Shown piece after piece: positions 1-5,960 of a DNA stretch of 17,021 nt. The position numbers and the translations under genes were made by a program. Each line of letters starts with the position of its first letter. Within the stretch, counting starts at the first letter, position 1. The stretch lies in assembly GCA_019058275.1 (NCBI GenBank), contig JAHLVW010000041.1, positions 1-17,021 of the forward strand, written 5' to 3'. Under the pieces are notes generated by a model that worked only from the letters and a program-made list of their open reading frames with translations, was not told where the DNA came from and ran no database searches. Source of the DNA: Candidatus Heimdallarchaeota archaeon. Its GTDB lineage: Archaea; Asgardarchaeota; Heimdallarchaeia; JABLTI01.

Positions 1-287
1 CATTAAGACAAAGTTACCCAAGCTACTTCTGGAATAAATCCTTCAAAATGCTCTGCTTCCCTCTCGAGATAGTCTTCTGGGATAAATAAGGGGAAGTAAG
101 CGTTTTTATGACCAGTAGCTTTCAATTCATTATCCAGCTTATCAACAATAGATTCCCAAATGGAGTAACCATAAGGCATGATTACATTTGAACCTTTTAC
201 AGGGGATCTTTTATCAACTATGTTAGCATATTCAACGACAGCTGTATACCATTGCAAAAATTCTTTCTCTTTATCCGGAAGTTTCAT
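1..287 (-). CDS. proS: Proline--tRNA ligase, archaeal/eukaryotic type (N-terminal part, runs off window)
   Basis: KEFLQWY...PVKG..VIMPYGYSIWE...GHKNAYFPLFIP..L.REAEHFEGF.PEVAWVT is the N-terminus and motif 1 region of archaeal/eukaryotic-type ProRS. Confidence 0.95.
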
Positions 288-383: not shown

Positions 384-1184
384 CTATTCTTGATTTTCAC
401 TCGAAAAAAGTCCTTTTCTCCCAACTATTATGAATGCTGTAAATCCTATCATTCGAGTAACTGGTCTAATAGCTCCTATTCGTGTTGTTAAATCTCTCCT
501 AATAATCTCAAAAGCTTCAATTTGATAGAAGTTACTATTGACCATCTTCTCAATTGTTTTGTCTACCTGAACATAAGTGGGTACAAAAACCAATAAAATA
601 CCTCCACCCATTAAGGCTTCCTTAGCAGAATCAATAACATCCCAAGGGTTGGGTAAATCCAGAATTACTGAATCAATTTCCTTCTCATCAAAACCTGTCG
701 TTGCATCTCTGATTTTAAATTTAACAAATTCTGACAATCCTAGTTTTTCAATATTTTTTCTAGCTACGGATTGGTGTTCTTCCTTAAAATCATACGAAAA
801 AACCTTGCCATCAGGTTTGACATACCTAGCCATTGCTGATGTCAATCCTCCGCTACCAGTACCTGCCTCAATAACCTTAGAACCACTACATATACCAGCA
901 GAAAAAATAATCTGAGCAATATCAGTTTGATAAATAACTTGTGTAGAATGAGTTACAGCGTCGAGAAAATCATATGGGATTGGTTTCCAAAGAAAGAAAT
1001 TAGACCCTTTAGCATTTGTTATACCGGAACCAAATTCTAATCCTATAATGTCATTATGAGGTATAGTTCCTTTGTGAGTGTGAAATTCTTTATCCTTCAC
1101 TACTTTTACCATCCATTTCTTAGTTGCTGAAGCTGAGATTAATACATAATCTCCTTCTTTAATCTTCATTGTGATTTTCTCCAA
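384..1184 (-). CDS. trmI: tRNA (adenine(57/58)-N1)-methyltransferase, TrmI/Gcd14 family
   Basis: FHTHKG.I.H..IIG N-terminal domain, TQVIY, SAM motif VIEAGTGSGGLT, LDLPNPW, and C-terminal RP..RMIGFTAF. The start may be ATG at 1169 rather than TTG at 1184. Confidence 0.93.
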   Translation of the reverse strand: MEKITMKIKEGDYVLISASATKKWMVKVVKDKEFHTHKGTIPHNDIIGLEFGSGITNAKGSNFFLWKPIPYDFLDAVTHSTQVIYQTDIAQIIFSAGICSGSKVIEAGTGSGGLTSAMARYVKPDGKVFSYDFKEEHQSVARKNIEKLGLSEFVKFKIRDATTGFDEKEIDSVILDLPNPWDVIDSAKEALMGGGILLVFVPTYVQVDKTIEKMVNSNFYQIEAFEIIRRDLTTRIGAIRPVTRMIGFTAFIIVGRKGLFSSENQE

Positions 1185-1294: not shown

Positions 1295-2146
1295 TTACTC
1301 TGTAATTAATCGAACATATTCATCAGCCATAATTGCCCTGATGATTTTTGTGTCTAGGTCACCAACAATAGTTTTAGAACCAATTATCGTTGTTGGCAAA
1401 GATTGAATACCATACTCTTTTGCTAATTTCTCATCTGTATTGATATTAACAACTCTAATGGTAAGTGGAAATTCATTTGATAGACTACTGATATTATCAA
1501 GTGCAGGTTTACACCAAGTACAGTCATCACTAAAGAAGAAAACAATGGGTAATTGTGCATCTGCTAATGCACCATTGAAATTAATTTTTTGCTTTTGTGG
1601 AACACCAAAGGATTCGTTCCAACCAGTAAGCATTTTTGCTATCATTGAAAAAATATCTATTACATTTTTACCTGTCTTAGCACTGGCAAAAACAATTCCA
1701 TTGAACATTCTACGGATATCTAACTGATTAAGTCGATCAGAGATCTCATCTACATTATGTTCTAAATCTATTTTATTGAATAAAATAATCTTAGGTATTT
1801 TTCTATTGGAAATTTGGTCAAGTCTTTCATTCCACACACTTAAATCATCAATAGATTCAGGACGAGAAACATCTGCCACAAAAATTGCTGCATCAGCTTC
1901 TACCAGATATCTAAAAGCAAACTTCTTGAAAGCTTCCTGTCCACCAACATCCCAAATAGATAAACCTACTTTCTTTTCTCCAATGGTAATATATCTTGTA
2001 TAAATATTAAAACCTAATGTTGCAGAATAACTTCCCTTAAATTGATTATGAACATACCTTTGAATGACACTTGTCTTTCCTACACTTGGATTGCCAAGAA
2101 CAACAATTTTTCGACAATCAACTGAACTAAGCATGTTACATACCAA
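1295..2146 (-). CDS. Rab-like small GTPase fused to a C-terminal thioredoxin/glutaredoxin-fold (CxxC) domain
   Basis: G1 GNPSVGKTS, G2 YSATLG, G3 WDVGGQ, G4 NKID, G5 SAK. These are followed by VFFFSDDCTWCKP...LAKEYGIQSLPTTII (CxxC plus cis-Pro loop). The likely start is ATG 2134. Confidence 0.88.
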   Translation of the reverse strand: MVCNMLSSVDCRKIVVLGNPSVGKTSVIQRYVHNQFKGSYSATLGFNIYTRYITIGEKKVGLSIWDVGGQEAFKKFAFRYLVEADAAIFVADVSRPESIDDLSVWNERLDQISNRKIPKIILFNKIDLEHNVDEISDRLNQLDIRRMFNGIVFASAKTGKNVIDIFSMIAKMLTGWNESFGVPQKQKINFNGALADAQLPIVFFFSDDCTWCKPALDNISSLSNEFPLTIRVVNINTDEKLAKEYGIQSLPTTIIGSKTIVGDLDTKIIRAIMADEYVRLITE

Positions 2147-2261: not shown

Positions 2262-2597
2262 TCAATTCTTCTGTATAATTTTTTTCTTTTTACCTTCTTT
2301 ACAAATTTCACAGTAGTAAATAACAGAAGATTGTTTCCCTGATTTGATACGAACGTGAGCATTTATTCCTGGACGAATGAATCTTTTGCAATTATTACAG
2401 AATCTTATTCTCCAACGTTTTGGTAACCGGATTCTTGCTTTCATAGCTATTTTCCTTGCTAATTCACCATACCTTAATGCTAAATCAGGTTCTTCAGGAT
2501 AAATTTCATCTGCTCTTGTTAAAAGTAAATCAATTCGCTCAATTGCTATTTGGTTGGTTTCGTTTTTTTCCCGTCTCGCTTTCATTATACTTAACAC
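2262..2597 (-). CDS. rnp4: Ribonuclease P protein component 4 (Rpp21)
   Basis: IAIERIDLL...LALRYGELARKIAMKARIRLP...RFCNNC...PG.NA.VRI...CEIC, the Rpr2/Rpp21 Zn-ribbon signature. Alternative ATG at 2585. Confidence 0.93.
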   Translation of the reverse strand: MLSIMKARREKNETNQIAIERIDLLLTRADEIYPEEPDLALRYGELARKIAMKARIRLPKRWRIRFCNNCKRFIRPGINAHVRIKSGKQSSVIYYCEICKEGKKKKIIQKN

Positions 2598-5564: not shown

Positions 5565-5960
5565 TTGATAGCCATTATCAAAGAGTTCAAACAAATGCTC
5601 CAAGAAATGTTCAAATCACGTGGAGTTACAGAAATACTTGCGAATGACCTAGTGGAAATTCTAGCTGTTAGCTTCAAAGAACTCGAGATGATGTTAAAGG
5701 AAGAAAATCTGAGCAAGGAATTTAAACTTGTGACAGCCAAAGATGGAACCATTTACGTAAAGCGTTATATGCAACCATTATTGGATGGGGAATCCATGAC
5801 AATTGCCTTTAAAATTCAATGGGATAATATCGGTGGATGTCCATGCTTTACTTGTTACGAATTAGAAAAGTGTGATGTAGGAAATCCGATTTCCTCCGTT
5901 GATTGTCCTCTGTTTTCAAAATGGTTATTCTCAGATTCGGACGAAGAAAAGAAGAAATGA
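5565..5960 (+). CDS. TFE-beta / RNA polymerase III Rpc34-like protein (putative winged helix plus C-terminal Fe-S domain)
   Basis: C-terminal CPCFTC-x5-C-x10-C-PLFSKWL resembles the [4Fe-4S] domain of archaeal TFE-beta and eukaryotic C34/RPC39. The N-terminus has a helix-helix-helix-hairpin pattern. GTGAGGT SD-like element precedes TTG 5565. Confidence 0.65.
   Translation: MIAIIKEFKQMLQEMFKSRGVTEILANDLVEILAVSFKELEMMLKEENLSKEFKLVTAKDGTIYVKRYMQPLLDGESMTIAFKIQWDNIGGCPCFTCYELEKCDVGNPISSVDCPLFSKWLFSDSDEEKKK

Follow-up and report, generated by a model that had tools for sequence, protein, structure and literature searches.

Research on Asgard small GTPases treats them as forerunners of the eukaryotic membrane and signalling switches, and what they sense or control is barely understood. 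A survey of their architectures recorded fusions to roadblock, longin, and unnamed "?" domains (PMC10933270). By occurrence counts, the word "thioredoxin" was absent from that survey and from the Asgard Arf papers compared with it, and full-text literature searches returned no description of a GTPase-thioredoxin fusion, in agreement with the initial annotation of the DNA studied here, which had recognised no characterised Rab-thioredoxin fusion. Two eukaryotic arrangements offer precedents for the parts. In RJL/DNAJC27, a Rab-like GTPase ends in a DnaJ domain, a folded helper domain in the place of the lipid tail, and phosducin-like proteins carry a Cys-less thioredoxin fold that binds G-beta-gamma as a non-redox G-protein-binding module. 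Both are built from other domains or serve other partners, and no homology to the protein described below is implied.

The window analysed opens contig C28 and spans its first 17,021 bases; the genome (G000), 4.1 Mb in size and 93% complete, is assigned to a GTDB family of Heimdall-group Asgard archaea with two genera (f1, hereafter the host family; its sister family is f3). One gene of this window encodes a Ras-superfamily G domain followed in the same frame by a CxxC thioredoxin fold (GTPase-Trx). Both halves belong to known kinds, and their combination is apparently undescribed; database entries name the proteins merely "GTP-binding protein". We refer to the CxxC fusion as family A and to a Cys-less fused copy as paralog B. 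The initial annotation had placed the open reading frame at 1295–2146 on the reverse strand. The uninterrupted frame was present as listed, with neither a stop nor a frameshift at the domain junction, but its start needed revision: the TTG at 2146 chosen by the ORF finder adds four residues, and the coding sequence likely starts at the ATG at 2134, because all orthologues begin at the position of this codon (as TTG or GTG in some). An A/T-rich tract lies 10–35 nt 5' of this ATG, and gaps of 110–130 nt separate the gene from its neighbours on either side, which would leave space for a promoter of its own. The features are collected in Table 1.

Table 1. Features of the GTPase-thioredoxin gene and its neighbours (window positions).
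Feature	Position	Strand	Remarks
GTPase-thioredoxin CDS	1295..2134	-	279 aa, stop at 1295-1297; motifs checked by script
Cys7, directly before beta-1	2114..2116	-	Cys in 40/48 clusters, N/T/S in 8
Ras-superfamily (Rab-like) G domain	1619..2113	-	Residues 8-172; Pfam, TIGR00231, PDB, Foldseek
G1 / P-loop GNPSVGKT	2072..2095	-	G14, P16, V18, G19, K20, T21 invariant in 49 clusters
G2, switch I Thr39 inside invariant TLGFNI	2018..2020	-	Script and alignment
G3 DVGGQ, catalytic Gln66	1937..1951	-	Script and alignment
G4 NKID	1766..1777	-	N120, K121, D123 invariant
G5 SAK	1676..1684	-	S151, A152, K153 invariant
Interdomain linker, motif E-x-F-G-V/I-P-x-K	1556..1618	-	Residues 173-193; 21 residues
Minimal thioredoxin fold (beta-alpha-beta-alpha-beta-beta-alpha)	1298..1555	-	Residues 194-279; HMM, profile, model
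CTWC, N-terminus of thioredoxin helix 1	1511..1522	-	Script; Cys205 and Cys208
SLPT, putative cis-Pro loop	1391..1402	-	P247, T248 invariant
RNase P subunit Rpr2/Rpp21, upstream co-directional	2262..2597	-	Pfam Rpr2 E 1.8e-16; position conserved
tRNA m1A methyltransferase TrmI/GCD14, downstream co-directional	384..1184	-	Pfam GCD14 E 3e-42; position conserved
Prolyl-tRNA synthetase, 5' part	3..287	-	Cut by contig start

A search of 5.8 billion proteins recovered approximately 48 full-length clusters (90% identity level) of 278–291 aa with 57–97% identity, which stem from NCBI, JGI, ENA, and Logan assemblies of independent metagenomes; below these two-domain matches, scores fell steeply to GTPase-only matches at E 1e-23. 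The initial annotation had suggested that the fusion be sought in relatives, and the same single frame was found in these independent clusters and in all 12 host-family genomes. Across 400 genomes of this phylum, those 12 alone carried the fusion at full length; it occurred in none of the approximately 388 others, which cover 32 families. Estimates of dN/dS (Nei-Gojobori, unsaturated pairs) were 0.04–0.11 for the G domain and 0.10–0.24 for the thioredoxin domain, and approximately 0–0.2 for the linker in close pairs. The fusion is thus a real gene under purifying selection, restricted to the host family. No eukaryotic counterpart was detected. A word search of "longer proteins" for the thioredoxin domain returned family A alone, and the GTPase fusions among the best 150 matches of the thioredoxin profile in 1.84 billion representatives were representatives of family A and paralog B only; each of these results is weak evidence of absence elsewhere.

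The initial annotation had described a complete G1–G5 GTPase domain with its catalytic Gln, and this description held: all motifs were located by script, and in the alignment of 49 sequences their residues, including Gln66, were invariant or nearly so. The Pfam Ras model (PF00071) matched residues 13–172 (E 1.1e-31; 110 bits against a cut-off of 21.6), and the NCBIfam small_GTP model TIGR00231 scored 83.7 bits against a cut-off of 42.5. The best sequence matches in the PDB were Rab7/Ypt7 (E 1e-23 to 1e-21 over residues 8–170). AlphaFold2, run on the 49-sequence alignment, predicted a Ras-like G domain within a whole-protein model of mean pLDDT 75.7 and pTM 0.76, and Foldseek matched the G domain of this model to Rab6, Rab43, and Rab8 (TM by target 0.72–0.80; probability 1.00). 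Judged by its motifs, the G domain is a competent-looking GTP switch of the Ras superfamily. One orthologue, P0049 (255 aa; "ADP-ribosylation factor-like protein" at NCBI), lacks approximately 24 residues across G3 and switch II (WDV------DV), which is either a real switch-disabling deletion or an assembly error.

The label "Rab-like" given by the initial annotation stands as far as the best structural and sequence matches go, but not as a strict class assignment. With Rab7/Ypt7 and other Rabs (5ldd_C, 1ky2, and 1vg1), GTPase-Trx shares the fold, the catalytic Gln, and all G motifs at approximately 30–38% identity; it differs in reading LGFNI for IGxDF, GLSIW for KLQIW, and YLVEA for YYRGA, and its G3 motif is the Arf/G-alpha-like WDVGGQ in place of WDTAGQ. 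Aligned with Rab7, the RabF segments matched partially (LGFNI/IGADF, GLSIW/TMQLW, AFKKFA/RFQSLG, YLVEA/FYRGA, and FVADVS/LVFDVN), with RabF1–RabF5 defined from general knowledge and PMC10933270. The C-terminus (...VRLITE) bears no CC, CxC, or CAAX motif, as the initial annotation had read it, and Cys208 is the last Cys of the protein; across the orthologues, Cys residues downstream of the CxxC motif were sporadic. A strict Rab was therefore rejected because the prenylation site is absent and the RabF motifs match only in part, and a folded thioredoxin domain occupies the place of the hypervariable tail and prenylation site of Rabs. Assignment to Arf was likewise rejected: Pfam Arf scored 69 bits, below the 110 bits of Ras, and the Arf-like strings were only LGFN and WDVGGQ. 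The protein has seven residues before beta-1 and L, R, I, or K at residue 2, in place of the Arf N-terminal helix and the Gly2 used for myristoylation. The Asgard Rab-like GTPases Thor-Rab and MKD1 (PMC10933270) are alike in their Ras-superfamily G domain, overall similarity to Rabs, lack of C-terminal prenylation Cys, and tendency to carry extra domains, but their partners are roadblock, longin, or "?" domains and here the partner is a CxxC thioredoxin fold.

The second half of the protein matched Pfam Thioredoxin (PF00085) over residues 185–256 with an E-value of 1.5e-8 and 35 bits, the gathering score being 23.5, so that both domains proposed by the initial annotation exceeded their Pfam cut-offs; its coordinates for the CTWC motif were reproduced by script, which also located SLPT. 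The CxxC pair was conserved in 47 of 49 clusters: Cys208 was found in all 49 and Cys205 in 47, the exceptions reading ASNC and SDLC. This conservation and the presence of the fusion in relatives contradict two of the conditions under which the initial annotation would have given up its reading. Pro247, Thr248, Gly258, Asp271, and Glu272 were invariant. The domain retains three elements that form the substrate groove in thioredoxins: the CxxC pair, a putative cis-Pro loop, and the V-G loop. Within the whole-protein model its pLDDT was 82–90, with a predicted helix (208–220) that starts at the second Cys, and modelled alone it reached 85–89; Foldseek matched the isolated model to archaeal and bacterial thioredoxins, including 3hhv and 4xhm (TM ~0.7). 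In a profile search of the PDB, true thioredoxins appeared from E 3e-10, including the 85-aa archaeal proteins 1fo5 (MJ0307) and 1nho (Mt0807).

The fold, CxxC motif, and cis-Pro are accordingly shared with minimal archaeal thioredoxins (1fo5, 1nho, Sulfolobus TrxA2 3hhv, and Archaeoglobus Trx3 4xhm; profile E 3e-8 to 6e-7, TM ~0.7), but these are free-standing with a fixed motif, whereas the domain described here is attached to a GTPase and has a variable C-x-[W/F/L]-C. Across the whole of family A the active-site motif was C-x-[W/F/L/S/N]-C, with no conserved Trp preceding it, and 12 dipeptides occurred between the two Cys residues (TW, DW, SL, LW, SW, EF, DF, EW, RS, AS, TN, and FW). The equivalog models were not reached, with 32.1 bits against 96.8 for thioredoxin (TIGR01068) and 30.1 bits against 92.75 for the MJ0307 family (TIGR00411); with scores far under these cut-offs and a variable active site, we rejected classification as a canonical or MJ0307-type thioredoxin equivalog.

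The linker that joins the two domains is conserved at five positions (E174, F176, G177, P179, and K181, each at least 90%), and was modelled with low confidence (pLDDT <50 for residues 174–190). A complex prediction of the G domain (residues 1–173) with the thioredoxin domain gave a median score of 0.31, against a mark of 0.32 and 0.00 for controls, and we give this score no weight on either side of the question of docking. Whole-protein searches of the PDB by Foldseek and of the ESM Atlas matched the G domain only and returned no two-domain look-alike. The initial annotation had also named Cys7 as a candidate intramolecular target of the CxxC motif. This idea was weakened: although the residue is Cys in most clusters, it is missing in 8 of 48 without a matching change in the CxxC motif, and these eight keep an intact CxxC, which rules out Cys7 as an obligatory partner in general. 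The equivalent position in paralog B is Gln.

Every one of the 12 host-family genomes contained a second match over both domains, with 32–35% identity to family A. In G000 this paralog B (271 aa; 260–278 aa among the 12 sequences) lies at L002:1486-2301, equal to C67:34890-35705, with the match at 34905–35663. An M24 (methionine-aminopeptidase-like) gene precedes it at a distance of 84 nt, and convergently downstream of it are genes for a 257-aa protein without a family assignment and a further small GTPase. Its G motifs are GDPGVGKT (G1), WDIAGQ (G3), TKLD (G4), and TSAK (G5), and D-[A/S/E]-W-S stands at the position of the family A CxxC (D-A-W-S in the G000 copy), with the [A/T]-x-P-T and L-V-G loops retained. 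Pfam recognised Ras (E 3e-40) and, below threshold, Thioredoxin; the thioredoxin domains of A and B were homologous by BLASTP (E 5e-14). There is selection on both Cys residues in family A and on their absence in paralog B.

In the G-domain tree, families A and B were each monophyletic (SH-aLRT 94 and 100). A free quick tree left them unjoined, and a tree in which they were constrained to join was 30.8 lnL units better than that free tree (p-AU 0.92). Because the thioredoxin domains are homologous, the constrained tree is better, and both families are confined to the host family, we favour one ancestral fusion followed by duplication as the most economical history, with the caveat that long branches leave either tree result soft.

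The thioredoxin module has free-standing relatives in the sister family. Among the best matches of its profile in 400 Asgard genomes, the long ORFs were families A and B only, and the nearest other matches were free-standing ORFs of 85–135 aa. The closest of these was an 85–91-aa thioredoxin of f3 with the pattern FF-T-S-x-x-C-S-W-C (E ~1e-15 with the domain profile; for example, L087:191-451 on the reverse strand, 86 aa), which was free-standing in 28 of 31 f3 genomes. It shares with the fused domain the patterns FF-[ST]-S-x-x-C-[ST]-W-C and P-T-x-I-x-x-x-x-x-I-I-G, but is unfused. With this protein as query, no stand-alone CSWC thioredoxin was found in any of the 12 host-family genomes; its matches there were confined to family A, in the fused domain, at 29–37% identity, and at E <=1e-6 the matches comprised 9 of the 11 genomes besides G000, with none in G000, G081, and G082. 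The complementary pattern in the two families suggests that a GTPase captured a CSWC-type thioredoxin gene. Apparent in-frame TAG and TGA codons in the small f3 thioredoxins lay 5' of the start codon, and selenocysteine was rejected. Two longer proteins were also considered as similar fusions and dismissed. A 302-aa ORF (L086:221-1129, reverse strand; G309, f29) has an N-terminal C-P-F-C thioredoxin resembling the fused domain, followed by approximately 170 residues, but no GTPase. A 521-aa protein matched past its G domain (L035:72-1637; G252, f20) has approximately 165 N-terminal residues, Ras at 169–333, and approximately 190 C-terminal residues without a Pfam match, and gave no thioredoxin match; it is a further Asgard GTPase with several domains.

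Gene order around GTPase-Trx was fixed in the host-family loci long enough to show it, with all genes co-directional: Rpr2, GTPase-Trx, TrmI, prolyl-tRNA synthetase, a roadblock/LC7 protein, and a 424-aa protein. In G000, a contig break divides this array: contig C105 opens with the remaining part of the prolyl-tRNA synthetase gene, and the roadblock and 424-aa genes come next (L037:1064-2769). Divergently upstream in the host family are genes for S19e, a PDCD5-like protein, L39e, L31e, FtsJ, Trm1, and RNase HII. None of the host-family neighbours was found within 1.5 kb of TrmI in f3. We give this synteny little functional weight because it is confined to close relatives and absent in the sister family, and the order may reflect shared ancestry alone. 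The roadblock/LC7 protein (137 aa) and then the 424-aa protein follow prolyl-tRNA synthetase in every host-family locus (for example, L010:9330-11048). The latter has only weak Pfam winged-helix matches, and six other G000 proteins (162–735 aa) contain parts similar to its first ~150 residues. The two may form a GTPase-regulator pair, and by analogy with MglA/MglB, the neighbouring roadblock protein is a reasonable candidate for a regulator of GTPase-Trx. The window also contains a 131-aa ORF without a Pfam match (5565–5960, forward strand), and every related locus compared has a gene for 131–136 aa at the same place, flanked by the genes for FtsJ and an ECF-like membrane protein.

From these data we propose that the thioredoxin module would serve the GTP switch as its output or its sensor, that its groove would bind a partner peptide in a role common to A and B, and that the dithiol/disulfide would be functional in family A; we assign this joint proposal a probability of about 0.42. 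The module would probably derive from a free-standing ~86-aa C-S/T-W-C thioredoxin of the type still present in f3. Two modes of action are conceivable in family A: a specific client may undergo thiol-disulfide exchange in one nucleotide state only, or the module and linker may shift against the G domain when the Cys pair is oxidised and so change signalling. Paralog B would be the redox-blind counterpart. We infer redox coupling itself, in the form of a Ras-superfamily switch covalently coupled to a redox-active thioredoxin, where GTP/GDP gates client exchange or redox state feeds the GTPase signal and paralog B serves as a redox-blind control, as a tentative reading that is less likely than not. 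A reducing system is available in G000, given one canonical thioredoxin (98.5 bits) and two TrxR-like genes that score just below the equivalog cut-off of 343 (330 and 328 bits). The TrxR-like genes lie at C61:128271-129164 and C117:40853-41734. A role as a dedicated reductase is disfavoured by the varying dipeptide, the two clusters without Cys205, the low equivalog scores, and the existence of a Cys-less paralog. In characterised oxidoreductases of the thioredoxin fold, redox potential is set by this dipeptide, and dedicated reductases keep it fixed (CGPC or CPYC), but here it varies freely within a family of at least 57% identity; the two clusters that lack the first, normally nucleophilic, Cys keep the second.

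The same observations bear on the alternatives. Since paralog B exists, the architecture works without redox chemistry, and the thioredoxin fold might be a redox-independent binding, adaptor, or auto-regulatory module throughout, with a CxxC that is inherited, stabilising, or ancillary. Cys-less thioredoxin folds have precedents in the b/b' domains of PDI and in the phosducin-like proteins. Paralog B keeps the architecture, the cis-Pro and V-G loops, and the Trp of xxW in 12 genomes without any Cys, family A tolerates changes in the dipeptide and the loss of Cys205 in two clusters, and the conserved linker motif suggests packing or binding. Nevertheless, the near-universal retention of Cys205 and the invariance of Cys208 down to 57% identity would be difficult to account for if the pair itself were not under selection, and the retention of both Cys in A with the loss of both in B looks like subfunctionalisation rather than neutrality; we regard a purely redox-independent module as somewhat unlikely. 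That a captured housekeeping thioredoxin remained a general cytoplasmic thioredoxin, with a G domain that is independent or sets its location or dosage, would suit the prevalence of free CSWC thioredoxins in f3 as the closest relatives, the absence of a stand-alone form from the 12 host-family genomes, and the presence of TrxR-like genes in G000. This simple tether is improbable, however, when identity to the free-standing form is only 29–37%, the active-site dipeptide is not constant, the linker is conserved rather than a floppy spacer, and G000 already has a canonical thioredoxin; nor would a general reductase role explain a retained Cys-less fused copy. That the fusion arose in assembly or gene calling, or is a pseudogene in decay, can be excluded for practical purposes, because one stop-free frame recurs in approximately 48 clusters from four sequence sources and in every host-family genome, with dN/dS far under 1 across the two domains and the linker.

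The proposal of a switch whose output or sensor end is a thioredoxin module is open to direct experiment: because the partner dithiol sits in the same polypeptide, standard GTPase and thiol assays can test for coupling in vitro, and the paralogs with and without Cys provide a natural matched pair for redox tests. The reach of the finding is limited by the confinement of the fusion to one family of the Heimdall group. If there is no coupling, GTPase-Trx would still be a lineage-specific domain invention in which a thioredoxin fold was recruited as a GTPase appendage. Effects of cysteine oxidation are known for Ras and Rho, and if the coupling is true, GTPase-Trx would be a direct redox link to a Ras-type switch that is built differently. 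It would then represent a new type of small-GTPase input or output, and one that arose among the closest archaeal relatives of eukaryotes.
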